From assembly GCA_035714365.1 (NCBI GenBank), contig DASTMB010000098.1, positions 70,005-134,004 on the forward strand: a stretch of 64,000 nucleotides of DNA, in the 5' to 3' direction. The position numbers and the translations under genes were made by a program. This document shows, piece by piece, positions 8,768-58,642 of this stretch. Position 1 is the stretch's first letter. Every line of letters starts with the position of its first letter. A model generated the notes under the pieces. The model searched no databases and had not been told where the DNA came from. It was given only the letters and a program-made list of their open reading frames with translations. The stretch comes from Mycobacteriales bacterium (GTDB taxonomy: Bacteria > Actinomycetota > Actinomycetes > BP-191).

Positions 8768-10071
8768 TCAGCCGACGAGGCGTTCGATGCCCGCGAGCGG
8801 GATGCCGATCCAGGACGGGCGGTGGGAGGCCTCGTACCGGACCTCGTACACCGCCTTGTCGAGCTCGAACGCCCTGAGCAACGCCGCCGCCTCGCGCGGG
8901 TCGCGCCCGGACTGCTGGCCGTACCCGTCGCAGAACGCGTCGCGGTTGCGGTCGGCCCACTCCACGGCGCGGTAGACGAGCTGGGCCGAGTCGGGGTGGT
9001 CGGCGAGCAGGTGGCGGGCGGCGTAGTCGAACGACCGCAGCATCCCCGCCACGTCCCGCAACGGCGACATCAGCGCGGTGCGTTCGGCGAGCGGCCGCGC
9101 GGGCTCGCCCTCGAAGTCGAGCACGACCCACCCGTCGCCGGTGCGCAGGCACTGGCCGAGGTGCAGGTCGCCGTGGATGCGCTGCACGGGCACCTCGCCC
9201 ACGTCGGACAGCGCGTCGTACGCGGCGCCGATCCCGGCGGCGTACGGCGCCAGCTCCGGCCCGGCCGCGACGGCCGCCGCGAGCCGCGCGTGCAGCATCG
9301 CCACCGTCTCGGCGGTCTCCTCGGCCGACGCGGTCCGTGACGGCAGCGCGCGCGCCAGGTCGGCGTGCAGCGCGGCGGTGACGGCGCCGAGCCGGCACGA
9401 CTCGGGCGCGAGGTCGCCGCCGACCTCGTCGGCGTGCAGGTCCCGCTCGGCGTAGAGGTCGCGGACGCTGGTCAGCGCGAGCGTCCACCCGTCGGTGCCG
9501 CCCTTGATGAACGGCTGGAGCAGCGCGAGCGTCGACCCGGCGCCCTCGGCCCAGCCGAGCGCGCGCGCGATCGACGTGGAGCCGAGCTCGCCGAGGGCGC
9601 GCACCACCTCGAGGTCGGGGTTCGGCGAGTCGGTGAGCCGCCGGTACAGCTTGAGGATGTACGTGTCGCCGTAGACCAGCGACGTGTTGCTCTGCTCGGC
9701 GCCGAGCGGCCGCCCCGGCAGGTCCGGCTCGCTGACCTCGCCGGTGAACGTCAGGCCGTCGACGGTGGCGCCGGTCGCCATGAGGCGGAGCCACTCGTTG
9801 TTGACGGCGGGGTCGTGCGGCGCGTCGTAGACGAGCTCGCCGTCGACCTCGCCGACCAGCGCGTGCGCGAGACGTTCGTCCTCCTCGGCCCGGAACGACA
9901 GCCACACCTGATAGCGGTCGTCGTGCGCGGTGACGACGTAGAGGTCGAGCCGCGGGTCGCCGTCGCGCACCGTGGCGACGTGCTCGGCGGTGACGGACGG
10001 GAGCGCGCGCGACTTGTCGGCGTACCACCGCTGCTTGGGCAGCCACTCCGCCAGCAGCGCGTCGAGATCGG

Positions 10072-10075
<4 letters not shown>
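8768..10075 (-). CDS. mak: Maltokinase (maltose 1-phosphate-forming; Mak/Pep2)
   Basis: [23 protein letters not shown]...[18 protein letters not shown]...[11 protein letters not shown]...DFEG, i.e. the Pep2/Mak aminoglycoside-phosphotransferase-like fold. GTG start overlaps the treS stop by 4 nt (GTGA). Lies inside the artefactual 871-aa track ORF 8768..11383. Confidence 0.8.
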
Positions 10076-11712
<1,637 letters not shown>

Positions 11713-11933
11713 GGCGCTGCGGGGGCGTGTGGGGTCAGCACGGGCCGAACCTACCCGGCGAGACGGTCAGGCAACATCGGCGCCGGGGCTCCGTCCTGAC
11801 TCGGCCCGGAGGTGCGTCTACTCCTCGCGAGCGAGGTCTCACCCCCAAATCAGGTTGCTCCGTGTGGCGGTTGAGTTAGACGGATGGCGCATGCCAAGAT
11901 TTCATCCCGTCACCACACGACGGGGGAACACCA

Positions 11934-12632
11934 ATGCGCATCAGGCGCCTCGTAGTAGTCGCGGCGTCTGCCGCGGTGTGCTTGCTCCAGCTACCCGCAT
12001 CGGCCGTGACGGTGGCGTCCGATCGCGCCTTTCCTCGCTATCGATCGCTCGACATAGCCGACGCCTACGCGCGCTTCGAGTGCGACGGTGTGGAATGTCA
12101 TCTCATGACGAGGGCCGTCGCGAACACGTCCAGCGTCCGCGGGTGCATGCGCGAGATCGTGGGGGCGGCCTCCGTGAGTCCGGCGCTGTCGTACTCCGAC
12201 ACCGAATGCATCGTCATCGTCGACGGCCGGTTCCAGCCGGGCCCGGGATCGGGCTCGGCCGCCGCCTGCACGTTACAGTCCGCCCAAGCGGTCGCTGTCG
12301 AATTCTCCAGCGGGGTCAACTCGGCTTTCAGCGGTACCTTCTCGGCCAGCGGGACCGTGGTGCCGACGGTGGTCCAGCGGTCGCCGCAAGGCTGGCCACT
12401 CGTCAAGAAGGCGCGGCTGTCACTCATCGGCGGCAGCGTGTTGCGGAGCTCGACGCTCCCGGGGATCGGTACGATCGAGCACACCTACTTCGACATCACG
12501 TTCCCGATCCCGATCGACACCTGCCACCCCTCCGCGCGCTACGCCGACGGCAAGGCAGGTGCGGTCCGGCCCGTCCGGGTGCTCGACGGGGCCGAGGCGA
12601 CGGAGTCGAGCACGATCAGCGTCTATGTCTGA
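11934..12632 (+). CDS. Secreted hypothetical protein (signal peptide)
   Basis: MRIRRLVVVAASAAVCLLQLPASA signal peptide; GGGGGAA RBS 6 nt upstream. The 5' region and upstream intergenic DNA are noticeably lower in GC than the surroundings. The stop overlaps the start of the next gene by 8 nt. Confidence 0.45.
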   Translation: MRIRRLVVVAASAAVCLLQLPASAVTVASDRAFPRYRSLDIADAYARFECDGVECHLMTRAVANTSSVRGCMREIVGAASVSPALSYSDTECIVIVDGRFQPGPGSGSAAACTLQSAQAVAVEFSSGVNSAFSGTFSASGTVVPTVVQRSPQGWPLVKKARLSLIGGSVLRSSTLPGIGTIEHTYFDITFPIPIDTCHPSARYADGKAGAVRPVRVLDGAEATESSTISVYV

Positions 12633-13893
12633 GCGGGGGGTCGCGCGGCGCCTGGCCCGGCGGGGGGCGCTCGCGCTGCTCCTCGCGGTCACGGCACTCC
12701 CTCCCACGACCTCGGCTTCCGGAGCTGCGGCCGCACCGGTCACGCCGTGCTCACGCGTCGCGGTGGCTCCGGACGTCCGGGATCCCACGGTCTACTGCGC
12801 AGGCGAAGTGGTGGACGAGCACCGCACCGTCACCGACGTGGCGCTGTTCGTCTCGCGGGACAGGGGACGGACCTGGACGAAGGCCACCGGGTCAGGGCTG
12901 ACGGTCCAGCCCGCCGGGGCTGCGGGAGAGGTGCTGCTCGACCTGTTCGTGTCTCCCGAGCACGCGGTCGACCACACCGTGTTCCTCGACCTCGCACCCG
13001 GAGGCCTCTACGAGTCGACCGACTACGGGACGACGTTCCTGATCGTGGACCCGTTGCTCGGGACCCGGCCCGTGCGGCCGTTCGTCACCGGCGTCTCCGC
13101 CGCGGCCACGGGTTCGGTCGGCCGGCGGACGACGCTCGTCGCCGCCGCCACCAGCAACGTCGACGGAGCGAACGCCTCGGTGCTCATCGACCCGGTCACG
13201 CATTCGCGGACGCCGATCAAGGGAACGCCCGGGCGGGATATCGCGTACGCCGTCTCGCCCAACTACCTGGAGGACCACCGCGCCTTCGCGGTCGGGGCGA
13301 GCGGAGCGGGCACCGGCGCCCTCACCGTCTACGGATGCAATCTCGCGTTCGACTGCTCCACGCCACTGAAACAGTTTCCGGCGTACTCGCGGTTCGGGCG
13401 AATCTGGATATCGGGCTCCCTCGTCGCGATCAGCATCGACGACGGTGCCGGCCACTTCGCCGTCTGGCGGTCGACCGACGGGGGCGCGCACTGGAGCGTC
13501 TGGCGTCCCGTGCAGTCGATCCTCGCGGCGTACAAGCTCGGGGCGCCGTATTACGACCTCGTGTTCCCGACGGCCCGCACCGTGTATCTCCGGACGAGCT
13601 TCGACGGCTACCGCGAGCCGCCGGGAGAGCAGCTTTTCGTGAGCCGGGACAACGGGAACACGTTCACCCGGATCGCGTGGGGCAAGGAGCCCCCCGGCCC
13701 CGCGGGGACCATGCCGTTGTTGCCGCTGCCGATGACGAACGGCGACCAGAACCTCCGCGCGGGCATCGTCGCGGTGGGTCCGGACGGGCGGATCTTCGAG
13801 ATCGGCCGGCGGCGCGACCGCACCGGTTTCACCTCGACGTTTGCCTGCACCGTCGACAACGGACGGCACTGGGCGTACCGCTGCGCCAAGTAG
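12625..13893 (+). CDS. Secreted BNR/Asp-box repeat protein (sialidase-like beta-propeller fold, function unknown)
   Basis: ATG 12625 gives MSERGVARRLARRGALALLLAVTALPPTTSASGAAA (signal peptide). Four S-x-D-x-G-x-T-W/F Asp-box motifs (SRDRGRTW, STDYGTTF, STDGGAHW, SRDNGNTF plus TVDNGRHW). Convergent with glgE (1-nt gap). Confidence 0.5.
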   Translation: MSERGVARRLARRGALALLLAVTALPPTTSASGAAAAPVTPCSRVAVAPDVRDPTVYCAGEVVDEHRTVTDVALFVSRDRGRTWTKATGSGLTVQPAGAAGEVLLDLFVSPEHAVDHTVFLDLAPGGLYESTDYGTTFLIVDPLLGTRPVRPFVTGVSAAATGSVGRRTTLVAAATSNVDGANASVLIDPVTHSRTPIKGTPGRDIAYAVSPNYLEDHRAFAVGASGAGTGALTVYGCNLAFDCSTPLKQFPAYSRFGRIWISGSLVAISIDDGAGHFAVWRSTDGGAHWSVWRPVQSILAAYKLGAPYYDLVFPTARTVYLRTSFDGYREPPGEQLFVSRDNGNTFTRIAWGKEPPGPAGTMPLLPLPMTNGDQNLRAGIVAVGPDGRIFEIGRRRDRTGFTSTFACTVDNGRHWAYRCAK

Positions 13894-13894
13894 G

Positions 13895-15886
<1,992 letters not shown>

Positions 15887-15957: not shown

Positions 15958-18447
15958 ATGAGAGCGCTGCGCCGACTGACCGTCCGGGCCACGCTGCCCG
16001 AGCCGCTCGCCCCGCTCGGCGAGCTGGTCATGAACCTCCGCTGGTCGTGGCACCACGAGTCGCTGGACCTGTTCGAGTCGGTCGACCCGGAGGTCTGGGC
16101 GGCGGTCGGGCAGGACCCGGTACGGCTGCTGGCGACCGTCTCCCGCGAACGCCTCGCCGCCCTGGCCGGCGACAAGCGGTTCCTGCGGCGGCTGTCCGAC
16201 GCGTACGACGACCTCCAGGAGTACCTGGCGAAGCCGCTCTGGTACCAGTCGCTCGACGGCGCGCCGGGCTCGATCGCGTACTTCTCGCCGGAGTTCGGCA
16301 TCACCGAGGTGCTGCCGCAGTACTCGGGCGGCCTCGGCATCCTCGCCGGCGACCACCTCAAGACCGCGAGCGACCTCGGCGTCCCGATCATCGGCGTCGG
16401 CCTGCTCTACCGCACCGGCTACTTCCGGCAGTCGCTGTCGCCGGAGGGCTGGCAGCTCGAGCACTACCCGGCGCTCGACCCGCACGGCCTGCCGCTGACC
16501 CGCCTCACCAACGCCGACGGCTCGCCGATGCGCGTCGAGGTCGGCCTGCCGGCGGGCGCGCGGCTGCGCGCGCAGGTGTGGAAGGCGCAGGTCGGCCGGG
16601 TGCCGTTGCTGCTGCTCGACTCCGACGTCGAGGACAACGCCCCGGCCGAGCGCGAGGTCACGGACCGGCTCTACGGCGGCGGCACCGACCACCGGCTGCT
16701 CCAGGAGATGCTGCTGGGCATCGGCGGCGTCCGCGCGCTGCGGGCGTTCGGGGCGGAGCCGGAGGTGTTCCACACCAACGAGGGGCACGCCGGCTTCCTC
16801 GGCCTCGAACGCATCCGCCGCCTCGTCGAGGAGGAGTCGCTCGACTGGGACGCGGCGCTGGAGGCCGTCCGCGCCGGGACCGTCTTCACGACGCACACGC
16901 CGGTGCCGGCGGGCATCGACAGGTTCCCGGCCGACCTGATCGCGGCGTACTTCGGCGGCGACAACGCCTGCCCGGGCGTGGCGGTCGAGAACATCCTCGC
17001 GCTCGGCGCGGAGCCCGGCGGCGACGGCTCGGTGTTCAACATGGCGGTGATGGGCCTGCGCCTCGCCCAGCGCGCCAACGGCGTCTCCAAGCTGCACGGC
17101 GTCGTGTCGCGCGGCATGTTCGCCGGGCTCTGGCCGGGCTTCGACGAGGCCGAGGTGCCGATCGCGTCCGTCACCAACGGCGTCCACGCCCCCACCTGGG
17201 TGGCGCGCGAGACGGCGGAGCTCGACGTGGCGACCGCGTCGGACGAGGAGCTGTGGGCGGCGCGGAGCGCGTTGCGGCGGCGGCTGGTGGAGGACGTGCG
17301 GCGGCGGGTGCGGGCGTCGTGGCTGGCGCGCGGCGCGACGCCGTCGGAGCTCGGCTGGACCGCCGACGCGCTCGACCCGGACGTGCTGACGGTCGGCTTC
17401 GCGCGACGGGTGCCGTCGTACAAGCGGCTGACGTTGATGCTGCGTTCGCCGGACCGGCTGCGCGCGCTGCTGCTGCACCCGGAGCGGCCGATGCAGCTCG
17501 TCGTCGCCGGCAAGGCGCACCCGGCCGACGACGGCGGCAAGGCGCTGGTGCAGGAGATCGTCCGCTTCGCCGACGAGGCGGACGTGCGGCACCGGATCGT
17601 GTTCCTGCCGGACTACGACATCGGCATGGCGAAGGTGCTGCTGCCCGGCTGCGACGTGTGGCTCAACAACCCGCTGCGGCCGTTGGAGGCGTGTGGCACG
17701 TCGGGGATGAAGGCGGCGCTGAACGGCGGGCTGAACCTGTCGATCCGCGACGGCTGGTGGGACGAGCTGTTCGACGGCGAGAACGGCTGGGCGATCCCGT
17801 CCGCCGACGGTGTCGTCGACCCCGACCGCCGCGACGACCTCGAGGCCGCCGCGATCTACGACCTGCTCGAGGGCACGGTGCTGCCGCGCTTCTACGACCG
17901 GGTCGGCGGCGTGCCGCGGCGGTGGATCGAGATGGTGCGGCACACGCTGCGCACGCTCGGCCCGGAGGTGCAGGCGACGCGGATGGTGCAGGAGTACGTG
18001 TCCGCGCTGTACGCGCCGGCCGCCGCGTCGTCGCGCGCGATGTCCGCGTCCTCGTACGGCGCGGCGCGGGCGCTGGCCGAGTGGCGCGGGCGGGTCGCGA
18101 AGGAGTGGCCGGGCGTCGCCGTCTCGCACGTCGAGTCCTCCGGCGTCGGCGACACCCCGGAGGTCGGCTCCACCGTGCACCTGCGCGCGATCGTCGCGCT
18201 GGGGGCGCTGGCGCCGGACGACGTGGCCGTGGAGGCGGCGTTCGGGCGGGTGGACGACGCCGACCAGATCGCCGCGCCGGAGCACCTGCCGCTCGCCTGC
18301 ACCGGCGACGCCGGGCAGGGGCAGTGGGCGTTCGAGGGCGACGTGCCGCTGGTGCGCACCGGCGCGTTCGGCTACACCGTGCGGGTCCTCCCACGTCACG
18401 CAAACCTGGCGAGCGCCGCCGAACTCGGCCTGATCACCTCGGCATGA
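15958..18447 (+). CDS. glgP: Alpha-glucan (glycogen/maltodextrin) phosphorylase, actinobacterial GlgP type (GT35)
   Basis: MRALRRLTVRATLPEPLAPLGELVMNLRWSWHHES..., PLP-site region CGTSGMKAALNGGLNLSIRDGWWDE. Divergent from glgE with a 71-bp spacer. Confidence 0.85.
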   Translation: MRALRRLTVRATLPEPLAPLGELVMNLRWSWHHESLDLFESVDPEVWAAVGQDPVRLLATVSRERLAALAGDKRFLRRLSDAYDDLQEYLAKPLWYQSLDGAPGSIAYFSPEFGITEVLPQYSGGLGILAGDHLKTASDLGVPIIGVGLLYRTGYFRQSLSPEGWQLEHYPALDPHGLPLTRLTNADGSPMRVEVGLPAGARLRAQVWKAQVGRVPLLLLDSDVEDNAPAEREVTDRLYGGGTDHRLLQEMLLGIGGVRALRAFGAEPEVFHTNEGHAGFLGLERIRRLVEEESLDWDAALEAVRAGTVFTTHTPVPAGIDRFPADLIAAYFGGDNACPGVAVENILALGAEPGGDGSVFNMAVMGLRLAQRANGVSKLHGVVSRGMFAGLWPGFDEAEVPIASVTNGVHAPTWVARETAELDVATASDEELWAARSALRRRLVEDVRRRVRASWLARGATPSELGWTADALDPDVLTVGFARRVPSYKRLTLMLRSPDRLRALLLHPERPMQLVVAGKAHPADDGGKALVQEIVRFADEADVRHRIVFLPDYDIGMAKVLLPGCDVWLNNPLRPLEACGTSGMKAALNGGLNLSIRDGWWDELFDGENGWAIPSADGVVDPDRRDDLEAAAIYDLLEGTVLPRFYDRVGGVPRRWIEMVRHTLRTLGPEVQATRMVQEYVSALYAPAAASSRAMSASSYGAARALAEWRGRVAKEWPGVAVSHVESSGVGDTPEVGSTVHLRAIVALGALAPDDVAVEAAFGRVDDADQIAAPEHLPLACTGDAGQGQWAFEGDVPLVRTGAFGYTVRVLPRHANLASAAELGLITSA

Positions 18448-18450
18448 TGC

Positions 18451-18951
18451 CTAATTCTCTGGAAGAGGTCCGAGGTTCACCATCGCGACCAGCAGGAGGA
18501 ACAGCACGGCCGCCGCAAGTGCGTAGAAACCTTTCCACCACCCGTAGCCCGAGAAGGCCTCACCACTACTCGCCACGAAGATCACGAACCCGAGGGTGGT
18601 GACGGCCAGTTGCTTCATGCGCGTGACGTGCAATACCGATCGGGCGAATAGCGGCGTCACGACGGCCCCTACGAGGAGGAGCGCGAGGTAGGCGCGGTGG
18701 ACGGCTTCGCCAGCGAACGTGTCAGGTATAGGGGCGGCAAGGACTACGTATGCGCTGACGACCTCTGCGGGCACGTACTTGAGAAGCCGGTCGAAGTAGT
18801 TGTCAGGCTTGGGTGCACCACCCGCCGGAGGTGCGGTATCGGTAGATCCGGGCATAGACGGCCCGATCTGCAGCAGAACAGCATCCCGTTGCGGTTGTGC
18901 CAGATTTGCTAGCTGTGTCGCATCTTCCAGGGTGATGATATTTCTGTTCAC
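18451..18951 (-). CDS. Small hypothetical membrane protein (166 aa; ~50-aa soluble N-terminus + 3 predicted TM helices) in a low-GC patch
   Basis: GTG start preceded by GGGGGAATA (RBS-like). VNRNIITLEDATQLANLAQ...YFDRLLKYVPAEVVSAYVVLAAPIP...LALLLVGAVVTPLF...LAVTTLGFVIFVASSG...FYALAAAVLFLLLVAMV. The region 18440-19000 is ~58-60% GC by eye versus >70% in the flanks. Listed in the track only as the 3' tail of the artefactual ORF 18451..21060. Confidence 0.4.
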   Translation of the reverse strand: MNRNIITLEDATQLANLAQPQRDAVLLQIGPSMPGSTDTAPPAGGAPKPDNYFDRLLKYVPAEVVSAYVVLAAPIPDTFAGEAVHRAYLALLLVGAVVTPLFARSVLHVTRMKQLAVTTLGFVIFVASSGEAFSGYGWWKGFYALAAAVLFLLLVAMVNLGPLPEN

Positions 18952-19001
18952 TATTCCCCCGGCGTAAGACGATGATGCGCGGAATATAGTCCGCCGTTTC
19001 C

Positions 19002-47108: not shown

Positions 47109-49178
47109 ATGGTCGACGCGAGGGAGCAAGGACGCGGGCTGTTCTCCGCGTTCACGCTCTACATCGCCACCGTCACGGCGATCGGGCTGGTCTTCACGCT
47201 GAACACGGTCCGGCACCTCCGCGCCGAGGATGCGCGGCTGATGGGGCCGGCGTTCCTCATGGCCGCGGCGCTGCTCGTCGTCGGCGAGCTGCGGCCGCTG
47301 TTCACCGCCGGCGGCAAGGACCAGAACGGCGTCGCGACGTCGACGACGTTCGTGTTCGCGCTGCTGCTGCACTGGGGCCTCGGCGTCGCGATCCTCATGC
47401 AGGCCGTCGCGACGGTCGTCGCCGACCGCACCAACCGCAAGGCGTGGTGGCGCACCGGCTTCAACGTCGCGCAGTACTCGCTGTCCTACGGCGCCGCGTC
47501 GTGGGTGCTGCACGCGGTCGGCCGCACCGGCACGCCCGCCGACCCGCTGCACCTCACCGGCACCGACCTGCCCGCGATCGCGCTCGCCGGCCTCGCGTTC
47601 TTCGTCTGCAACAACCTGCTCGTCAGCGAGGCGATCTCGCTGCACACCGACGAGCCGCTGGCGACGGTCGTGCGGGAGGACCTGGCGTTCCAGGGCCTCA
47701 CGACGGCCGCCCTGCTCGCGCTGTCGCCGGTCGTCGTCGTCGTGCTCGAACGCAGCGTCGGCCTGGTGCCGTTGCTGCTGCTCCCGCTGTTCGCGGTCTA
47801 CAAGAACGCGTCGGTGTCGCTGGAGCGCGAGCACCAGGCGTTGCACGACACCCTGACCGGCCTGCCGAACCGCAAGCTGCTGCTCAGCCAGGTCACCGAC
47901 GCGATCGAGGAGGCGGGACGGCTCGACCAGCAGGTCGGGCTCTTCCTCCTCGACCTGGACCGGTTCAAGGACGTCAACGACACCTTGGGGCACCACGTCG
48001 GCGACGAGCTGCTGACCCACGTCGCGGACCGGCTGGCGTCGGTGCTGCGGCCGCAGGACACGGTGGCGCGGCTCGGCGGCGACGAGTTCGGGGTGCTGCT
48101 GCCGACCGTCCGCGACGCCGCCGTCGCCGAGGAGGTCGCCGAGCGCATCCGCGCGGCGCTCACCCAGCCGTTCCACCTGGACGAGGTGTCGCTCGACCTC
48201 GAGGCGAGCATCGGCATCGCGCTCTACCCGGCGCACGCCGGCGACGCGGACGCGCTCATGCAGCGCGCCGACGTCGCGATGTACCACGCCAAGGAGACGC
48301 GCAGCGGCATCGAGACCTACGACGCCGAGCGCGACCCGCACAGCACGCAGCGGCTCTCGCTGTTCGGCCAGCTCCGCCGCGCCATCGAGGACGGCGAGCT
48401 GGTCCTGCACTACCAGCCGAAGGTCGACCTCGAGTCCGGCGAGGTCGCCGGCGTCGAGGCGCTGGTCCGCTGGGAGCACCCGGAACGCGGCCTGCTCGGC
48501 CCGGACACGTTCGTCCCGCTCGCCGAGCAGACCGGCCTGATGAAGTCGCTCACCGCGAACGTCCTGGAGCAGGCGCTGCGGCAGACCGCGGTTTGGGCCG
48601 ACGCCGGGCTGCGCGTCCGCATGGCCGTCAACGTCTCCGCGCGCGACCTGCACGACGACGCGTTCTGCGACCGGGTCAGCGCGGCGCTGGAGCAGACCGG
48701 AGTCCCGGCGTCGATGCTCGAGCTGGAGCTCACCGAGCGCGTCGTCATGGCCGACCCGGAGCGCGCGATGCGCAACCTCACCGCGCTGTCCCGCCTCGGC
48801 GTCCGGCTCTCGCTGGACGACTTCGGCACCGGCTACTCGTCGCTCGCCTACCTGCGCCGCCTGCCGGTCACCGAGATCAAGATCGACAAGTCGTTCGTGC
48901 TGCGGATGGACGTGGACGACGAGGACGCGACGATCGTCCGCTCCACCATCGACCTCGCGCACGGCCTCGGCCTGCGCGTCCTCGCCGAGGGCGTCGAGAC
49001 CGCCGAGACCTGGCAACGCCTCTCCGACCTCGGCTGCGACGCCGCGCAGGGGTACTTCCTCTCCCGCCCGCACCCGGCCCGCGTCGTCACCGAGTGGCTC
49101 GCCGCCCGCGACGCGATCCCGGTGATGCGCGTCCTCGACGGCGGCCGCGACGGCGGCGAGCGCCGCGCCGCGCGTTGA
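47109..49178 (+). CDS. Membrane-anchored GGDEF-EAL protein (diguanylate cyclase/phosphodiesterase; N-terminal multi-TM sensor domain)
   Basis: ~8 hydrophobic helices, then GGDEF ([11 protein letters not shown]) and EAL ([24 protein letters not shown]) motifs. The minus-strand 693-aa ORF 46992..49073 is its antisense artefact. Confidence 0.8.
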
Positions 49179-49240
49179 CGGTGCGGTCCCGCCCGGCCTA
49201 GCGTCCGCGCCGTTCGACCCCTACCGAACGGAGCCCAGCC

Positions 49241-49504
49241 ATGTCGTTCCGCCGCGCCGCCGCCGCGCTCGCCATCGCCGCCCTGGGGGCGTTCGCGCCC
49301 GCCGCGCACGCCGACTACCCGTACACCTGCGACAACGTCGACTGCTTCGCGCTGTGGTGCGTCGACCACCTCGGCGACTGCCGAGACAGCAGCCCGAGCT
49401 CCGGCTTCTGCTACGACCGCACCTGCTTCGCCGCCAGGGGCGACGTCGCCGACTACGCGATGTACTGCACGCTGGACAACAGCCCGGTGTGGTGCGTCCT
49501 CTGA
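49241..49504 (+). CDS. Small secreted cysteine-rich protein (signal peptide + ~63-aa mature peptide with 8 Cys)
   Basis: [24 protein letters not shown] | [63 protein letters not shown]; RBS GGAG upstream. Confidence 0.4.
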
Positions 49505-49554
49505 CGCGGCCGCCGGCGGGAAACCTGTCGGCGGGCCTCGGTAGGCTTCGCCGC

Positions 49555-49851
49555 ATGGCCATCACCCGAGCCGAGGTCGCGCACCTCGCGCGCCTGTCGC
49601 GGCTGGCGTTGAGCGACGACGAGCTGGACCGGCTCGCCTCCCAGCTCGACGTCATCCTCGGCGCCGTCGCGCGCGTCGGGGAGGTCGCCGCCGGCGACAT
49701 CCTGCCGACCAGCCACTCGGTGCCGTTGACGAACGTCTTCCGCCCCGACGAGGTCCGCCCGTCGCTGCCGCGCGACGCCGCGCTCGCCGGCGCGCCGGCG
49801 GCCGAGCAGGGCCGGTTCCGCGTCCCGCGCATCCTGGACGAGGAAGCATGA
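49555..49851 (+). CDS. gatC: Asp/Glu-tRNA amidotransferase subunit C
   Basis: [38 protein letters not shown]... Start at the conserved Met (codon 68 of track ORF 49354..49851). Confidence 0.8.
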
Positions 49852-51308
49852 CCGAGCTCACGCGGCGTTCCGCCGCCTCGCTCGCGGCGTCGATCGCGGC
49901 GGGCGAGGTGTCCGCCGTCGAGGTGACGCAGGCGCACCTGGACCGGATCGCGGCCGTCGACGACAAGGTCCACGCGTTCCTCCACGTCGACGCCGAGGGG
50001 GCGCTGACCCAGGCGCGGCGGGTCGACGCGGGCGAGGTGACCGGCCCGCTGGCGGGCGTGCCGCTGGCGTTGAAGGACGTGTTCACCACCGAGGGCGTCC
50101 CGACCACCTGCGGCTCGAAGATCCTCGAAGGCTGGCGGCCGCCGTACGACGCGACCGTGACGCGGCGGCTCAAGGAGGCCGGCGTCGTCATCCTCGGCAA
50201 GACCAACATGGACGAGTTCGCGATGGGCTCCTCCACCGAGAACAGCGCGTACGGCCCCACCCGCAACCCGTGGGACCTCGACCGCGTCCCCGGCGGCTCC
50301 GGCGGCGGCTCGTCGGCCGCGGTCGCGTCGTTCATGGCGCCGCTCGGCATCGGCACCGACACCGGAGGGTCGATCCGCCAGCCGGCCGCCGTCACCGGCA
50401 CCGTCGGCGCCAAGCCCACCTACGGCGGCGTGTCCCGGTACGGCCTCATCGCGTTCTCCTCCTCGCTCGACCAGGGCGGGCCGTGCGCGCGCACCGTGCT
50501 CGACGCGGCGTTGCTGCACGAGGTCATCGCCGGCCACGACCCGATGGACTCCACCTCGATCGACGCGCCGGTGCCGCCGGTGGTCTCGGCCGCGCGGTCC
50601 GCGGACGTGTCCGGGATGCGCGTCGGCGTCGTCCGCGAGTTCACCGGCGACGGGTACCAGCCCGGCGTCGAGGCGGCGTTCCGCGCGGCCGTCGCGACGC
50701 TCGAGTCGCTCGGCGCCACGGTGGTCGAGGTGTCCTGCCCGCACTTCGTCTACGCGCTGCCCGCCTACTACCTGATCGCGCCCAGCGAGTGCTCCTCCAA
50801 CCTCGCCCGCTTCGACGCCATGCGGTACGGCCTGCGGGTGGGCGACGACGGGGCGCGTTCGGCCGAGGAGGTCATGTCCGTCACCCGCGACGCGGGCTTC
50901 GGCGACGAGGTCAAGCGACGCGTCATCCTCGGCTCGTTCGCCCTGTCGTCCGGCTACTACGACGCGTACTACGGCCAGGCGCAGAAGGTCCGCACGCTCA
51001 TCACCCGCGACTTCGCGGCGGCGTTCGAGCAGGTCGACGTGCTCGTGTCGCCCACGACGCCGACGACGGCGTTCCGCATCGGCGAACGCGCCGACGACCC
51101 GATGGCGATGTACCTCGCCGACCTGTGCACCATCCCCTCCAACCTCTCCGGCGGCGCCGCCATGTCCGTCCCCTGCGGCGCCCTCTCCGACGACGGGCTG
51201 CCGGTCGGGCTCCAGGTCATGGCACCCGCGATGCGCGACGACCAGATGTATCGGGTGGCGGCGGCGTACGAGGCCGCGGCCCCGCTGACGGAGGTGCCCG
51301 CGCTGTGA
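49848..51308 (+). CDS. gatA: Asp/Glu-tRNA amidotransferase subunit A (amidase signature)
   Basis: Amidase signature [12 protein letters not shown]...[12 protein letters not shown]; overlaps gatC by 4 nt. Confidence 0.9.
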
Positions 51309-52777
51309 CCGCCGTTGTGGACGACGTGCTGGCGAGGTGGGAGCCGGTCATCGGCATGGAGACCCACGTCGAGCTCGGCACCCGGTCGAAGATGTTCTGC
51401 GGCTGCGCGACGGAGTTCGGCGCCGAGCCGAACACGCAGACCTGCCCCGTCTGCCTCGGCCTCCCCGGGTCGCTGCCCGTCGCCAACGAGGCTGCCATCC
51501 GCTACACCGTCATGATCGGGCTGGCGCTGAACTGTTCCATCGCCGAGTGGTGCCGCTTCGCGCGGAAGAACTACTTCTACCCGGACATGCCGAAGAACTT
51601 CCAGATCAGCCAGTACGACGAGCCGTTGTGCTTCGACGGCTGGATCGAGGTCGGCGGCGAGCGCATCGGCATCGAACGCGTCCACCTCGAGGAGGACACC
51701 GGCAAGTCGCTGCACGTCGGCGGCGCCACCGGCCGCATCCACGGCGCCGACCACTCGCTCGTCGACTACAACCGCGCCGGCATCCCGCTCGTCGAGATCG
51801 TCACCCGCCCCGACATCCACTCCGCCGAGACGGCCCGCGCCTACGTCACCGAGCTGCGCGACATCCTGCGCACCCTCGGCGTCAGCGACGTGAAGATGGA
51901 GGAGGGGTCGCTGCGTTGCGACGTCAACGTGTCGTTGCGGCCGCGCGGCGTTCTCGCGCTCGGCACGCGCGCGGAGGTCAAGAACGTCAACTCGCTGCGT
52001 TCGGTCGAGCGGGCCGTCCGGCACGAGATCGGGCGGCAGGCGGCACGGCTGGAGGCGGGGGAGCGGATCGTCCAGGAGACGCGCCACTTCCACGAGAACA
52101 CCGGCACCACCACCGCCGGGCGGTCCAAGGAGGAGGCGCAGGACTACCGGTACTTCCCGGAGCCCGACCTCGTCCCGATCGCGCCCGCGCGCGACTGGGT
52201 GGAGTCGTTGCGGGCGGCGTTGCCCGAGCTGCCGTCGGCGCGGCGCGCCCGCCTCGTCGGCTCGCTCGGCCTGCCCGAGCTCGACGTCGAGGCGATGACC
52301 CGCGCGGGCGTTCTCGACCTGGTGCTCGCCACCGTCGAGGCCGGCGCGTCCCCGGCCGAGGCCCGCAACTGGTGGCTCGGCGACCTCCAGGCCCGCGCCA
52401 ACGCCGCCGGTGTCCCCGCCGGCGACCTCGGCGTCACGCCCGCGCACGTCGCCCGCGTCTGCGCGCTCGTCGCGGCCGGCGACCTGTCGGCGTCGCTGGC
52501 GAAGGAGGTCTTCGCAGCGGTCATGGAGACCGGTCAGGACCCGGACACCGTCGTCGCGGAGCGCGGGCTGAAGCAGGTGTCCGACGAGGGCGCGCTCGGC
52601 GCCGCCGTGGACGAGGCCATCGCCGCGAACCCGGACGTCGCGCAGAAGGTCCGCGACGGCAAGGTCGCCGCGGCCGGCGCGCTCGTGGGCGCGGTGATGA
52701 AGGCGATGCGCGGGCAGGCGAACGCCGCCACCGTCAACCGCCTCGTCCTCGAACGCCTCGGCGTTCATCGCCCGTAA
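51305..52777 (+). CDS. gatB: Asp/Glu-tRNA amidotransferase subunit B
   Basis: GTG start overlapping the gatA stop (GTGA). [20 protein letters not shown]...[20 protein letters not shown] is the GatB signature. Embedded in track ORF 50270..52777. Confidence 0.9.
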
Positions 52778-52819
52778 CTTATCGGCCGCACGTCAGAGTG
52801 ATGTTCGAGCGGCGATCAC

Positions 52820-54412
52820 TTATTCGGGAAAGTAATCGCCGTCATCCGCTTCCTCGTCCGGCACTAGCGCCTCACTTACTTGTTCCACGGCGCTCAGTGG
52901 AGGGAAAGGGCTCGCTGCTGGCGCCGGCGTATAGGATCCTAACTCCGGGTACAGAGCAACAGTGCGTGTGACGAGATCGGTGGCCTTCGTTCGCAGATCA
53001 TCCGAGAACTCATCTGCGAGGGTGAGTTGGCCAATCAAGAGACGTCGAACAATGTCGCAGCAATAGGCGATATCGTCATCGGTCGGAGCGCCATCCTCGT
53101 GCTGGTCCAGCTCGCGGTCGAGTGACTGCACAAGTTCCGAGACGGCAATCGAGGGCAGCGGCACTGAGTATATGTGACCCCAAGAAATTTCGTTTGCTGC
53201 CGCAACGATATGGCGACGAGTGTAATTCAATCGAAGTCCCGTGAGGATCGTGGATGCAATCCCTGGGCCATAAATCCCGTCAACAGCTGCGGCAACTGCA
53301 CTTTGCAATATGATGCTAAGATCCTCCCAGCGTGCAACGTTACTCCCTTGCACACGCAAGAGGAAGTCGTCGTATGCCTCAGCCAGCGCGTGTGGAATCT
53401 TGCGCTTAGATAATTGCGCAATCAGATCTGATGTGAAGATCGTCTGCGCGCCAAAGGGAGTCCGACGCCGAGGGCTCGTCGCTGGCCGTATTTGTGCGGA
53501 CAACTGCGAGATCAAGCCATAGCTGGTAAGCATCTTGAGAGTCGAACCGGGTATCACGGCCTGTGGGAAGGCTGTAATAGTTAGGCGACTCAGGAACTCG
53601 CCTAGAAGGCGTGCATGTTCGCTGTGATCGACGGTCTTAGTGGGATCGAGGACAATGGTCCTCAGGCCAACCGAGGAGTACAGAGCTTCTAGTACGGGAT
53701 TCGGGTGCAGACGAACAATCCAGGAGATGGGCCGATCGGCCGTCGGAACGTCCTTCATCATTTGCATTAGCTTGAACCAGATAACGCGGATGTTAATATC
53801 GCCGAAACCATACCCCATAAAAAGGACGGAGCGGCCAAGTAGATCCCCTCGGAACTTGAGGTCCATGGGCGATTCGAAGTCGAGGCGGGCGTAGTACGAA
53901 CTTTCTGTAAGAACAAGCGTATCTTCATACATCAAGTCGCCGTGATACTTTACTATCTGCGTTCTGTTTCCTCCGGTACCTAGCGCTAGGTGACGTGGGA
54001 GAGCTACGAGATCAGTCAAAATCCCTGCTCGGCGAAAGGTTCGTTCAATTAAATCATCATAGTTTGTCGTGTAGACTTGCGGAGCGCCGAGGTTCACTAG
54101 CTCCACGTGGCAAGTCGACAGGAGTGGATCTGTTTCTGTGCGCAGGGCTTCCGAGATTCGTTGCCGCAGCGGACCGATCATGCTGCCCGACTTGATAAAC
54201 AGGTACTCCGCTACCTGCAGGAAGTTATTGTCACACAGATCGCATAGATCATCGAACTCCGGTACGTCTTCTGCTACGTCGCAGATGCTCGCAAGTAGAT
54301 CGCGCCACGATGGCAGGCCCAGGGATGCGGAGAACCCTGCGCCGACAAATGGAATAACTCGCCGCTCCGCGACCATCTTCGCGAGTTCGGTCGGAATTAC
54401 AAAGTCAGACAT
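52820..54412 (-). CDS. SIR2-family (SIR2_2/DHS-like NAD-binding) protein with uncharacterised C-terminal domain; candidate NAD+-depleting anti-phage defence effector, in a low-GC island
   Basis: N-terminal ~280 aa carries the defence-type SIR2 signature: RVIPFVGAGFSASLGLPSW, VYTTNYDDLIERTF (catalytic Asn), VKYHGD (catalytic His), VLFMGYGFGDINIRV. No Cys4 zinc ribbon of deacetylase sirtuins. The C-terminal ~240 aa are helical with no recognisable motif. The gene lies in DNA of ~50-55% GC (eyeball counts) between >70% GC flanks. Confidence 0.7.
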   Translation of the reverse strand: MSDFVIPTELAKMVAERRVIPFVGAGFSASLGLPSWRDLLASICDVAEDVPEFDDLCDLCDNNFLQVAEYLFIKSGSMIGPLRQRISEALRTETDPLLSTCHVELVNLGAPQVYTTNYDDLIERTFRRAGILTDLVALPRHLALGTGGNRTQIVKYHGDLMYEDTLVLTESSYYARLDFESPMDLKFRGDLLGRSVLFMGYGFGDINIRVIWFKLMQMMKDVPTADRPISWIVRLHPNPVLEALYSSVGLRTIVLDPTKTVDHSEHARLLGEFLSRLTITAFPQAVIPGSTLKMLTSYGLISQLSAQIRPATSPRRRTPFGAQTIFTSDLIAQLSKRKIPHALAEAYDDFLLRVQGSNVARWEDLSIILQSAVAAAVDGIYGPGIASTILTGLRLNYTRRHIVAAANEISWGHIYSVPLPSIAVSELVQSLDRELDQHEDGAPTDDDIAYCCDIVRRLLIGQLTLADEFSDDLRTKATDLVTRTVALYPELGSYTPAPAASPFPPLSAVEQVSEALVPDEEADDGDYFPE

Positions 54413-54440
54413 GGCGTCCCCTCTCAGGGGGAACTATACC

Positions 54441-55526
54441 GTGGTAAGACGGAGCGGGACATTGATCGCGCTTGTGCTGGCCATCGGCATAGCGGCTATC
54501 GCGCCGGCGGGCGCCCACACCAGCGACCCGACGATCGTCACGCGCATCGACGCGGTCGAGCCGCACCCGGACGGCGTGACGATCGAGGTGCGCGCCGGCG
54601 TCGCCGACCAGCTCCTCGCCGTCAACACCACACCGACGCCGCTCACGATCCTGGCGACCGGCGGCGAGCCGTTCCTGCGCATCGGGCAGCACCAGGTCGA
54701 GGCGAACCTCGCCTCCCCGGACTGGTACCTGTCGAACTCCCCGCTCGGCCTCGCCCGCATCCCGGGCACCGCGACGCCACGAGCGGCGCCGCGCTGGCTG
54801 GTGGTCGCGCGGTCCGGCTCGTGGGGCTGGTTCGACCACCGGCTGCACCCGGTCATCCGCCCGCTCACGCCCGAGCTGCGCAACGCCCGCGCCGCGGTGC
54901 GGCTCGGCGACTGGAGCGTGCCGTTCACCTACGGCGCCACGCCCGGCCGCGTCACCGGGCACGTCGAGTACCGGCCGGTGCTCGGCGCGTTCCGCAGCCG
55001 GGTCGAGCACGTACCCGACGGCGTGGAGGTGGACGTGCTGGACGGGCGGGTGCCGGGGCTGTTCCTGCGCTGGCGGGGCAGCGGGACGTTGACGGTCGGC
55101 GGGATCGCGGGGGAGCCGTTCGCGCGGCTCACGCCCACCACCGCCGAGGTCAACGCCGCGAGCGAGACGTGGCAGGACGACCAGCGGCTGCGCGGCACGG
55201 CGCCGACGGCGGCGGCGGACCCGGCGCGACCGCAGTGGCGGGTCACGGGAACGGCGCCGCGGCTCACCTGGCTGGACCGGAGGCTCGCGTACGCGCCGGG
55301 CGTGCCGCCGGACGCCGTGCTGCGGTCGCGGCGGGTCACGACGATGGTCGAGTGGGACGTGCCGGTGAACGTCGCCGGGCGGGCCGAGCACGTCACCGGC
55401 ACCACCACCTGGGTGCCGTCGGCGACGGCGCCGCAACGGCACCCGTGGCCGCTCTACGCGGCCGCCGCGCTGGCCGCCGTCGCGGGGCTCGCGGTCCTGC
55501 GCCGCAAGGGGCCGCGGCGCCGCTGA
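54441..55526 (+). CDS. Secreted hypothetical protein with C-terminal hydrophobic anchor
   Basis: GTG start with AGGGGGA RBS ~10 nt upstream; VVRRSGTLIALVLAIGIAAIAPAGAHT signal peptide; C-terminus PLYAAAALAAVAGLAVLRRKGPRRR (TM + basic tail). An alternative ATG at 54411 overlaps the SIR2 start (CATG). Confidence 0.45.
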   Translation: MVRRSGTLIALVLAIGIAAIAPAGAHTSDPTIVTRIDAVEPHPDGVTIEVRAGVADQLLAVNTTPTPLTILATGGEPFLRIGQHQVEANLASPDWYLSNSPLGLARIPGTATPRAAPRWLVVARSGSWGWFDHRLHPVIRPLTPELRNARAAVRLGDWSVPFTYGATPGRVTGHVEYRPVLGAFRSRVEHVPDGVEVDVLDGRVPGLFLRWRGSGTLTVGGIAGEPFARLTPTTAEVNAASETWQDDQRLRGTAPTAAADPARPQWRVTGTAPRLTWLDRRLAYAPGVPPDAVLRSRRVTTMVEWDVPVNVAGRAEHVTGTTTWVPSATAPQRHPWPLYAAAALAAVAGLAVLRRKGPRRR

Positions 55527-55589
55527 CGCAGGGAACGCCGCCTCCGGTGTCGAAGCGGACCGGCGCTGTCCCTACCGAGAGGCCCGCCG

Positions 55590-57764
55590 ATGCGCACGAC
55601 CGCCGCCGTCGCCGCCCTGCTGCTCGCCGCGGGCGCCGCGCCCACCCTGCTGTCCCCGGCCGCGCAGGCCACCGACCCGTCCGTCGTCGGCGTGTTCTCG
55701 CAGCCGTTCGAGGAGGCCGGGCCGCGCTGCGCGAAGGACGCGCAGGGGCACACGATCTGCAAGCCGGCCGGCGTCTCCACGGTCGCCCTCGCCGACGGCA
55801 CGGTCCTCTACTGGGACGGCCTGGAGGGCATGGAGGACGTCCGCTACAACACCGTCCTCGAGATCGGCGACACCGCGCAGGACGACCTCTCCCGCGTGCT
55901 CGACCTGCGCGGCGGCCGCCCCCGCTGGTCGACGCCGACGCCGAAGGACGCCAGCCCCTCCAACGCCCCCGTCGGCGACGAGTTCCTCCCGGTCGTCCCG
56001 CACAACAACGACCGGACCGACAACGACAACGACCTGTTCTGCGCCGACCAGGTGCAGCTCGCCGACGGCCGGGTGCTCACGGTCGGCGGCACCGGCTACT
56101 ACCTGGAGCCCGGCGTCACCGGCGTCCCCTACGGCCTCAGCGAGCTCGAGGGCCTCAAGGCGACGCGCCTGTTCGACCCCGCGACACGGACGTGGCGCAA
56201 CGCGCGCGGCCACATGACGTACGGCCGCTGGTACCCGAGCCTGGTCACGCTGCCGGACGGCAAGGTGCTCGTCACGAGCGGCGTCACCAAGCTCATCAAG
56301 CCGATGTACCCGGACCGCCCCGCCGACAGCGGCACCAACGTCAAGCAGACCGAGACGTTCGACCCGGCGACCGAGACGTGGACGGTCAACCCGGCGAGCG
56401 CCGACCGGTCGCTGCCGCTGTTCCCGCGGCTGCACCTGCTGCCGGACGGCAAGGTGTACTACGACGCCGCCGGCCAGACGTTCAACCCGATGGGCCAGTC
56501 GTACGACGAGGCGCTGTGGAACATGGCCGCCGTCTACGACCCGGCCACCAAGGCGTGGACCGACCTGGGCCTGCCGCAGTTCGGCCCGGCGCTGAAGGGC
56601 TTCCGCGGCAGCGGGTTCTCGCAGCAGCTCACGCTGCGGGCGCCGTACACGAAGGCGGAGTTCCTCTCCGCGGGCGGCGTCTACGGCGTCACGCCCGGCA
56701 CCTACGTCGGCACCGACACGTCGACGCTCAACACCGTCGACACCGCGGCCGGCGACGCGTTCAGCAGCGTCGCGACCGGCCCGCTGCGCAACGCCCGCTG
56801 GTACTCCACCGGCGTCACGCTGCCGACCGGGCAGGTGCTCGCGTTCTCCGGTGCCGACCGCGACGAGGTCGACGCGCCGGGCAGCGGCGCGGCGGTGACG
56901 CAGGCCGAGCTGTTCGACCCGGCGACGCGCACCTGGACGGCGCTGGCGAGCGGCCACAAGGGCCGGACGTACCACAACACCGCGATCCTGCTGCCGGACG
57001 GCCGGGTGCTCGTCGGCGGGCACGCGCCGATCAACACGGGCTACGCGTTCGGCACCAACGCCGTCCGCTCCGAGGTGGGCCTGTCGGACGCGTTCCGCGA
57101 CCCGTCGTTCGAGGTGTTCACGCCGCCGAACCTGTTCTACGGCCCGCGCCCGGTCATCACCGACTACGAGCGCAGCCAGCGGTACGGCACCCGCACGACC
57201 ATCGACGTCACGGACGCCCGCGACGTCGCGAGCGTCGTGCTGGTCCGCAACCCGGCGCTGACCCACCTCATCGACGGCGACCAGAAGGTGGTCGAGCTGC
57301 CGATCGTCGGCCGCGACGGCGGCAGCGTCACCGTCGCCACGCCGCCGTCGGCGAACGTCGCCCCCGCGGGCCCGTACTGGCTGTTCGTCAACAAGCGGAC
57401 GCCGAAGGGCCTGACGCCGTCGGTGTCACGCCAGGTGTTCGTCGGCGCGCCCGTCCCGGCCGCGCTGGCCGGCACCATCGAGGCCAACAACGCCGCCGCC
57501 GTGCGCGCCGAGCTCGGCGCCGCGAAGGCGGCACCGCACGGCAAGGCGAAGGGCCACGACAAGCGCTCGAAGACCGCCGCGCCCGCCGGCTCGTCGACCC
57601 CGGCGAAGGCGCCAGCCGCCACCGTCGCGAACCACGCCGGGGACGCGCGGGCGATCGACGCGGTGCCGGTGAGCGACACGCGTCGCCGGGCGCCGTACGC
57701 GCTGCTCGCGCTCACCGCCGCGGCGGGCGTCGCGGTGACGCGGCGCCGGCTCGCGCGCCGGTAG
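55590..57764 (+). CDS. Secreted Kelch/galactose-oxidase-like copper radical oxidase family protein (glyoxal-oxidase-like, DUF1929 C-domain) with C-terminal membrane anchor
   Basis: Signal peptide MRTTAAVAALLLAAGAAPTLLSPAAQA. Repeated Kelch-like blades (DGRVLTVGG, DGKVLVTSG, DGKVYYDAAG, TGQVLAFSG, DGRVLVGGH). C-terminal E-set-like domain (PYWLFVNKRTPKGLTPSVSRQVFVG). Terminal LLALTAAAGVAVTRRRLARR. Confidence 0.7.
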   Translation: MRTTAAVAALLLAAGAAPTLLSPAAQATDPSVVGVFSQPFEEAGPRCAKDAQGHTICKPAGVSTVALADGTVLYWDGLEGMEDVRYNTVLEIGDTAQDDLSRVLDLRGGRPRWSTPTPKDASPSNAPVGDEFLPVVPHNNDRTDNDNDLFCADQVQLADGRVLTVGGTGYYLEPGVTGVPYGLSELEGLKATRLFDPATRTWRNARGHMTYGRWYPSLVTLPDGKVLVTSGVTKLIKPMYPDRPADSGTNVKQTETFDPATETWTVNPASADRSLPLFPRLHLLPDGKVYYDAAGQTFNPMGQSYDEALWNMAAVYDPATKAWTDLGLPQFGPALKGFRGSGFSQQLTLRAPYTKAEFLSAGGVYGVTPGTYVGTDTSTLNTVDTAAGDAFSSVATGPLRNARWYSTGVTLPTGQVLAFSGADRDEVDAPGSGAAVTQAELFDPATRTWTALASGHKGRTYHNTAILLPDGRVLVGGHAPINTGYAFGTNAVRSEVGLSDAFRDPSFEVFTPPNLFYGPRPVITDYERSQRYGTRTTIDVTDARDVASVVLVRNPALTHLIDGDQKVVELPIVGRDGGSVTVATPPSANVAPAGPYWLFVNKRTPKGLTPSVSRQVFVGAPVPAALAGTIEANNAAAVRAELGAAKAAPHGKAKGHDKRSKTAAPAGSSTPAKAPAATVANHAGDARAIDAVPVSDTRRRAPYALLALTAAAGVAVTRRRLARR

Positions 57765-57778
57765 CCGCGCCCGCCGGC

Positions 57779-58642
57779 TCAGCGCGTCTCGGCCACCAGT
57801 TCGGCGAGCAACGCCGTCAGCTCGTCCGGGCGTTCGATCGGCAGGAAGTGCGAGCCGTCGAGCTCGACCAGCCGCGCGTGCGGGATCGCCGCCGCCGCGC
57901 GGCGCATCGCGTGCCGCGACGTGACGATGTCCCGGCGTCCGGCGACGAGCGTCGTCGGGCAGCGCACGAACGACAGGTCCATCGGCGCGTGGTCGGCCAG
58001 CGCGACGGCGAGCGTGAAGTACCAGCGGAAGTCGTGCTTGCGGAACTCGTCCAGCGTCGGCACCAGGCGTTCCGGCGTGGCGGCGGGCAGCATGAACCCG
58101 CTGTGCGCCACCGCCCACGCCGTCGCGCGGTTGACCGGCACGGTGCGGGCGGTGAGGTTCAGCGCCGGGGCGGCGAGCCGCAGCCCGCGCGCCACCGACA
58201 CCGCCGCCGCGTGCCGCACCCGCGGCAGCCCGCGCAACGGCCCGAACATCGCCGCGAACGACCCGCCCGGCACGCCGGCGACCGCGAGCAGGCCGGCGAC
58301 CCGCTCCGGGTACGCCTCCGCGAACGCGAACGCCACGTTGACGCCGAGGCTCCAGCAGACCAGCACGGCGCGGTCGATCCCGCGCGCGTCGAGCAGCCCC
58401 AGCAGGTCGCCGACGTGGTCCTCGATGCGGATGCGGGCCGGGTCGAGCGGGCGCTCGGACCCGCCGGAGCCGCGGTAGTACCACGTGTGCACGCGGTACC
58501 CGCTGTCCGCCGACACCAGCGTCGGCCACGACTCCGGCGGTGCCCCGAGACCGTTCGCGACGACGACGTCGGGGCCGGTGCCGTCGTTGCACCACCCGCG
58601 CACGCGCGTGCCGTCGCCGGTGAGGTAGCCGAACGTGCTCAT
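57779..58642 (-). CDS. Alpha/beta-hydrolase fold protein
   Basis: VVVANGLG, CWSLGVNVAF (nucleophile elbow S), C-terminal DGSHFLPIERPDE (His). Confidence 0.65.
   Translation of the reverse strand: MSTFGYLTGDGTRVRGWCNDGTGPDVVVANGLGAPPESWPTLVSADSGYRVHTWYYRGSGGSERPLDPARIRIEDHVGDLLGLLDARGIDRAVLVCWSLGVNVAFAFAEAYPERVAGLLAVAGVPGGSFAAMFGPLRGLPRVRHAAAVSVARGLRLAAPALNLTARTVPVNRATAWAVAHSGFMLPAATPERLVPTLDEFRKHDFRWYFTLAVALADHAPMDLSFVRCPTTLVAGRRDIVTSRHAMRRAAAAIPHARLVELDGSHFLPIERPDELTALLAELVAETR

Follow-up and report, generated by a model that had tools for sequence, protein, structure and literature searches.

A stand-alone KomC-type SIR2 protein that combines a family-specific helical domain with an acidic tail, encoded in a low-GC island beside gatB of a Mycobacteriales bacterium

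NADases of the SIR2 type, which act on nicotinamide adenine dinucleotide (NAD), are among the commonest bacterial immune effectors and have relatives in human immunity (FAM118/SIRal). Among the described systems, ThsA of Thoeris carries a SIR2_2 NADase that is activated through oligomerization; DSR1 and DSR2 combine an N-terminal SIR2_2 NADase with a C-terminal helical sensor region in one polypeptide, and DSR2 is reported to bind a phage tail tube protein directly; and KomC of the Kongming system, a protein of ∼264 amino acids (aa), acts only in a filament with a separate sensor of deoxyinosine triphosphate (dITP), KomB, and depends on KomA. To our knowledge, komB, which encodes a HAM1-like nucleoside triphosphate (NTP) pyrophosphatase, always accompanies komC. 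The gene analyzed here encodes a solitary SIR2 protein of 530 aa and lies beside gatB in a 64-kb stretch of a Mycobacteriales bacterium (GCA_035714365.1, contig DASTMB010000098.1, positions 70,005 to 134,004 of the forward strand; the whole of this stretch is referred to as the window, and its product as the window protein).

The gene is best read, at a probability of roughly 60%, as a horizontally acquired single gene for a self-contained immune effector of the SIR2_2 type, an anti-phage sirtuin that depletes NAD. The KomC-type enzyme, so far known only in a three-gene nucleotide-signaling system, also exists stand-alone with its own presumed sensor; in the window protein its regulation would fall to the helical domain fused to it and to the acidic tail, in place of KomB and KomA. 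The features on which this reading is built are as follows, in positions of the window and residues of the protein.

52778..54440, no strand: single-gene island of low GC, flanked by gatB and a native high-GC gene (GC profile)
52820..54412, minus strand: gene for the 530-aa protein (SIR2 domain, helical domain and acidic tail), stop codon included (open reading frame list)
53570..54412, minus strand: SIR2_2 domain of the KomC clade, residues 1–281 (Pfam, KomC structure matches and Foldseek)
54305..54343, minus strand: glycine-rich NAD-binding loop GAGFSASLGLPSW, residues 24–36 (translation check)
54062..54064, minus strand: putative catalytic asparagine N117 of TTNYD, residues 115–119 (codon verified; invariant)
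53942..53944, minus strand: putative catalytic histidine H157 of KYHGD, residues 155–159, aligned to KomC H146 (KomC alignment)
53798..53800, minus strand: D205, aligned to KomC D194 (offset from KomC alignment; invariant)
52901..53566, minus strand: family-specific all-helical C-terminal domain, the presumed sensor or regulator, residues 283–504
52823..52900, minus strand: acidic C-terminal tail, residues 505–530 (…VPDEEADDGDYFPE), a degenerate version of the family's tail, which resembles the tip of SSB, the protein that binds single-stranded DNA (sequence; tip disordered in models)
52778..52819, no strand: left junction, a 42-bp convergent gap from the gatB stop to the SIR2 stop
54410..54413, no strand: right junction, CATG, with overlapping divergent start codons

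The original prediction, made from the sequence before any database search, had set the protein beside Thoeris ThsA, DSR1/DSR2, SIR2-HerA and SPARSA; the SIR2_2 kinship held up, but the nearest characterized relative, KomC, was missing from that list. The N-terminal 260 residues have KomC as their closest relative, and the histidine (H146 in KomC, H157 here) and the aspartate (D194 and D205) are common to both. Unlike KomC, the window protein has a fused helical domain of 250 aa, and no komA or komB adjoins it in any of nine loci compared (the window and eight others). Membership in Kongming was rejected, as a KomC-type SIR2 is present but komA (adenosine deaminase or another nucleotide-modifying enzyme) and komB are absent, and a comparison by hhalign showed no relationship between the C-terminal domain and KomB (probability 0.2%). 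The single-gene logic is that of DSR1 and DSR2, but these proteins are much longer (∼1000–1250 aa), the NCBIfam models for Dsr2 and Dsr1 scored 22.7 and 16.8 bits against cut-offs of 1400, and the SIR2 part alone aligned. The top PADLOC match was to ThsA (E = 5e-26), but it spans residues 9–221 only, the C-terminus is all-helical with no signal-binding domain of the SLOG or Macro kind, and no ThsB/TIR gene lies nearby; indeed, the top PADLOC models (ThsA, LmuA, Dsr1 and PDC-S25) all match via the SIR2 core only. The PADLOC candidates PDC-S25 and PDC-S65 (∼500–590 aa) share the size and the single-gene layout of SIR2 plus an extension, but weak and partial matches to their SIR2 cores (E = 2e-10 and 3e-3) mark the window protein as a member of a different family. 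Avs5 (SIR2-STAND) was likewise set aside, at 13.3 bits against a cut-off of 1000 and with no fused STAND NTPase, as were SIR2-HerA and SPARSA (SIR2-APAZ with prokaryotic Argonaute, pAgo), since neither a HerA helicase nor a pAgo is found in the protein or its neighbors. As had been anticipated, no named system claims the whole protein, with PADLOC and NCBIfam matches confined to the SIR2 half and far under the family cut-offs. Current defense-finding tools would label the family only as an orphan ThsA-like domain and overlook it. Its effector chemistry is familiar, as is its single-gene logic; the sensor domain is uncatalogued and, as far as found, the SSB-tip-like tail is undescribed.

The KomC-type domain, the helical domain and their family

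Pfam assigned residues 113–237 to SIR2_2 (PF13289; 75.6 bits, well over the gathering score of 24.5; E = 5.3e-21), and the Pfam scan of the protein gave no match to the canonical sirtuin (SIR2 deacetylase) family. The loop GAGFSASLGLPSW and the motifs TTNYD and KYHGD on the 530-aa minus-strand open reading frame (ORF), from which the original prediction had derived its SIR2_2 assignment, were all found in their places. Residues G24, G26, P34, W36, N117, H157 and D205 are invariant in a 66-sequence alignment of the family, and the window protein retains every family-invariant residue on an intact ORF. No cysteine is conserved among the 66 sequences, the window pair C57-x-x-C60 not being kept, and the family therefore has no zinc ribbon; the predicted lack of the Cys4 ribbon of deacetylase sirtuins was borne out.

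Among solved structures, chains of KomC were the top matches by a wide margin (8zsf, E = 4e-42 over residues 17–246; 9v0g, which Foldseek identified as another KomBC complex, E = 2e-32), followed by ThsA (∼1e-13) and DSR2 (∼1e-10). The AlphaFold2 model superposed on KomC with a TM-score of 0.86–0.90 at 33–35% identity (Foldseek). In KomBC, the mutation H146A leads to an almost entire loss of NADase activity, and D194 is reported to be critical to NADase activity in the SIR2 effector (PMC13454610). With the NAD loop, N117, H157 and D205 intact, the N-terminal half is predicted from its sequence to be an active KomC-clade SIR2 NAD glycohydrolase.

One of the plasmid matches obtained by tblastn is the KomC of Zymomonas, which shares 41% identity with the window protein across 253 residues (E = 3e-54) and is encoded on Zymomonas mobilis pZMOB01 (L090, 2439–4795) in a Kongming operon comprising an adenosine deaminase, a non-canonical HAM1-like NTP pyrophosphatase and then the SIR2 gene. 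This operon resides on a 32-kb plasmid, adjoins transposase genes and carries only generic product names in the deposited record. A Mesorhizobium ciceri plasmid (L091, 3977–4876) encodes a stand-alone member of the same clade, a SIR2 protein of ∼300 aa with 36% identity over residues 10–323; it has no KomB or KomA neighbor and may be another solitary KomC-like variant.

The C-terminal domain was modeled as a compact helical unit. The full-length AlphaFold2 model was confident (pLDDT 89.6, pTM 0.90, the model's per-residue and global confidence scores), with an all-helical region at ∼298–490, a short docked helix at 506–514 and a disordered tip, and residues 283–530 modeled alone were equally confident (pLDDT 89.2). 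A profile built from 34 sequences of the domain matched nothing in PDB sequences or Pfam, no specific fold match was obtained, and a BFVD search returned no significant result; the prediction of a helical, non-SLOG C-terminus agrees with this model. The fold resembles generic protein-binding helical repeats, not nucleotide-binding folds. A cluster of charged and aromatic residues within the domain (R337, R399, W411, E434, D445, D447, D453 and R457) is invariant, and the window protein has a tyrosine where the nearly invariant W415 stands in the family.

When searched against 1.84 billion representative proteins, the C-terminal profile matched 150 clusters. In all full-length matches the domain lies at ∼283–530 of a 500–620-aa protein, and the shorter ones look like gene fragments; of 10 odd-length matches that were checked, eight contained SIR2_2 and the other two were weak, partial and without a Pfam match. 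Because the matches are confined to the SIR2-fused architecture, the helical domain is exclusive to this SIR2 clade and not a shuffled module. At least 120 full-length homologs were recovered at 40–47% identity, with both domains common to all. Far from being a one-off, the window protein belongs to a conserved family that unites the two domains and comprises at least 150 clusters.

Foreign composition and mobile contexts

The island stands out sharply from its surroundings: GC content is 0.51–0.58 across 52750–54400 and 0.70–0.80 in both flanks, and the SIR2 gene itself has a GC content of 0.545 and a GC content at third codon positions (GC3) of 0.584, against a GC3 of 0.96–0.99 in gatA, gatB and the two genes downstream of the island. 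It is the sole trough of this kind in the window, as no other 1-kb bin falls lower than 0.661. The original prediction had estimated the low GC by eye and had described the 42-bp spacing from gatB, the overlap of start codons and the lack of room for a second gene, and the measurements agree with it on each. The TAA of gatB ends at 52777 and the SIR2 stop occupies 52820–52822, and at the other end the ATG of the minus strand (54410–54412, read as CAT) overlaps by 2 nt the ATG of the plus-strand neighbor (54411–54413), for which a GTG at 54441 is an alternative start. The only second ORF of at least 80 aa in the island is an 84-aa antisense ORF inside the SIR2 gene, leaving no room for a second gene. 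Neither a sigma-70-like promoter nor an intrinsic terminator consensus was found around the gene, including the 42-bp gap. The CATG overlap leaves no intergenic space for a promoter either, and these observations point to leaderless transcripts or to promoters within the adjoining coding sequence.

Comparison with relatives supports the predicted horizontal acquisition. The comparison covered 80 gatB loci (L006–L085) of GTDB representatives, whose GatB is at most 73% identical among the matches listed, and the SIR2 gene was absent within 6 kb of gatB in all 80. In each of the nine SIR2 loci compared, the gene lies 7–20 GC points under its flanks. Four of these contexts include mobile-element genes nearby: a serine recombinase together with type I restriction-modification genes in L001, an integrase fragment and a transposase in L002, a tyrosine integrase and an IS110 transposase in L086, and a serine recombinase in L089. 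In L087, the SIR2 gene directly follows smc-zipA-ligA, a housekeeping-side insertion much like that in the window; this gene order we take to be of gammaproteobacterial type. Also in L087, a 132-aa ORF without a Pfam family (9544–9942) shares 20 nt with the 3′ end of the SIR2 gene, and no equivalent is listed in the other loci.

The predicted absence of a partner gene extended from the window to the whole comparison. No neighbor gene is common to the nine loci, and none has a partner gene; no deaminase, HAM1, TIR or cyclase gene adjoins the SIR2 gene in any of them, and no HerA, pAgo or STAND domain occurs in the window protein or in the neighboring genes. For TIR, the neighbors covered in the window were gatB and the secreted protein, the rest of the 64-kb window lying outside the TIR scan, and in the eight other loci no Pfam TIR family was found among the called genes within ∼8 kb.

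Acidic tail, activation and competing explanations

The C-terminal tip of SSB recruits that protein's many partners. An acidic hexapeptide of the same type (DDDIPF/DDEPPF) ends about one-third of the SIR2 family, although, unlike SSB, the family proteins are without an oligonucleotide/oligosaccharide-binding (OB) fold and are otherwise unrelated to it. Tails ending in PF were present in 43 of 120 homologs and in 47 of 151 full-length sequences, and the same tail ends were seen in an independent sample of representatives; the tip consensus is [D/E]-D-[D/E]-[I/P/V]-P-F (homologs P0002–P0245), as compared with SSB tips of WMDFDDDIPF in Escherichia coli and GADDEPPF in Mycobacterium smegmatis (PMC3575820), DDDIPF being the SSB-Ct hexapeptide (PMC5872125). 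Several members also have an aromatic residue at position −7, like E. coli SSB, and the tip-bearing tail is acidic, poorly conserved and disordered in models. The tip is scattered over a tree computed from the SIR2 half only, with 27 state changes where shuffles gave 40 ± 2.4; repeated loss of an ancestral tip explains this more plausibly than repeated invention of the hexapeptide. SIR2 domains of PPF-tipped members are richer in amino acids typical of high-GC genomes than those of IPF-tipped members, a hint that the kind of tip goes with the host. The window protein ends in …DDGDYFPE, acidic but non-canonical, and in two other members a single further residue follows PF (…DDLPFK and …DDLPFE); the tip appears to be eroding in some lineages. 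A literature search, which did not reach most subscription-journal papers, found no sirtuin or other defense effector with an SSB-like tip. No ssb gene is present in the 64-kb window or in the fetched loci.

As a self-contained effector, the enzyme would be kept inactive in uninfected cells until the helical domain, the tail or both bind an infection cue; its oligomeric state would then change, as in ThsA, DSR2, KomBC, Avs5 and FAM118B, and the resulting NAD hydrolysis would arrest the infected cell. Related sirtuins are reported to be activated by oligomerization (PMC13454610, PMC12700824), and the same is presumed here. A candidate trigger is a phage protein bound directly by the helical domain in the manner of DSR2, which would fit the generic protein-binding repeat fold of that domain.

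Several observations weigh against this reading of the gene as an acquired, self-sufficient defense effector. R77, a residue of the KomC filament, has E88 as its counterpart in the window protein, so the assembly mode and geometry of KomC are not simply transferable. The closest GatB relatives are only ∼70% identical (at most 73% among the matches listed), leaving the insertion poorly dated, and the island bears no integration scars, with no tRNA gene in the window and no convincing flanking direct repeats; nor does the ORF list contain an integrase gene within the island. A recognized defense system, type I restriction-modification, adjoins in only one of the nine contexts. The family was not found on INPHARED phages or IMG/VR viral contigs, the full-length protein was not found on plasmids (tblastn gave matches to the SIR2 half only), and PADLOC 2.0, NCBIfam and PHROGs hold no full-length model of the family. 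The literature search likewise returned no family member with demonstrated NADase activity or phage protection.

For the family, the reading might be refined by taking the tail as a mimic of the host SSB tip, a putative bait to which tip-docking phage proteins, such as exonucleases, helicases or single-strand-annealing recombinases, would bind instead; being oligomers, these would bring copies of the SIR2 enzyme together or free it and so set off NAD hydrolysis. The PF tips of the E. coli and M. smegmatis types, the aromatic residue at −7, the disordered acidic tail, the scatter on the tree expected of a repeatedly lost ancestral feature and the correspondence between tip type and high-GC amino acids are all in keeping with such a bait, as is the occurrence of an IPF-tipped member behind smc-zipA-ligA (L087). 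Phage recombinases are reported to bind the host SSB tip (PMC6393309, PMC13490951), and phage recombinases and phage SSBs are known triggers of defense. However, about two-thirds of members, including the window protein, are without a canonical tip, which is thus not essential to the family; one PPF-tipped member adjoins a gene with a weak match to a PEP-CTERM sorting domain (PF07589); and the tail could just as well bring the enzyme to the partners of host SSB, or act as an autoinhibitor by folding back. The PEP-CTERM-neighbored locus is one that we take not to be actinobacterial. The bait is a tentative proposal, doubtful for the family and less relevant still to the window copy. A similarly doubtful corollary is that the family represents a new type of single-protein immune sensor, a guard or decoy built on the host SSB tip, in which binding of phage replication or recombination proteins would trigger a KomC-like NADase; the window copy would be a variant with shifted or lost specificity. 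The tail does offer a hypothesis, at once concrete and cheap, of how such a single-protein system distinguishes infection from normal life; if true, mimicry of a host replication hub would join the known ways of sensing phages, the guard or decoy would be aimed at an interaction that phages cannot easily abandon, and it would provide a handle for finding SSB-targeting phage proteins.

It is unlikely that the protein is instead an orphan signaling effector whose helical domain binds a small molecule made elsewhere in the genome or by the phage, as KomB binds dITP and SLOG binds glycocyclic ADP-ribose (gcADPR). Members of the KomC clade are signal-activated, and the invariant cluster from R337 to R457 could form a pocket; however, the nine loci are devoid of an adjoining deaminase, HAM1, TIR or cyclase gene, and the domain, unrelated to KomB, has the fold of protein-binding repeats. 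Least likely of all is a non-immune role, be it as a sirtuin borne by mobile elements that acts on a DNA-metabolism protein via the SSB network (for example, by ADP-ribosylation or deacylation) or as a decaying passenger. Most contexts are not recognizable defense islands, the SSB-like tip points to partners in replication and repair, and in the window copy the tip is degenerate and Y stands in for W415, all of which would suit that explanation; against it, the closest relatives by sequence and fold (KomC, ThsA and DSR2) are all NADase immune effectors, the canonical deacetylase match and the zinc ribbon are both missing, the ORF is intact with all family-invariant residues present, and the patchy, low-GC, mobile-element-linked distribution is typical of defense genes.

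Neighborhood of gatB

A family search of the neighboring genes identified GGDEF-EAL, gatC, gatA and gatB on one flank of the island and, on the other, a signal-peptide protein to which Pfam assigns no family, a Kelch protein resembling glyoxal or galactose oxidase, and an alpha/beta hydrolase (57779–58642). An identical copy of the SIR2 protein is on deposit as ‘SIR2 family protein [Mycobacteriales bacterium],’ from a Mycobacteriales metagenome-assembled genome. The genes that follow the island (54411–57764; signal-peptide and Kelch) have native GC3, yet are absent from all 80 related gatB loci, and a homolog of the window alpha/beta hydrolase lies ∼0.1–1.1 kb after gatB in four of the 80; the site downstream of gatB may therefore have gained DNA more than once. 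By their record titles, the 80 loci are mostly actinobacterial. Elsewhere in the window, mildly reduced GC (0.66–0.70, against a window average of ∼0.74) was seen at 10001–15000 and 18001–19000, a far weaker dip than that of the SIR2 island. The GGDEF-EAL (MASE9) signaling gene just upstream of gatCAB, which together with that operon takes up 47109–52777 of the window, was present in 51 of the 80 gatB loci.

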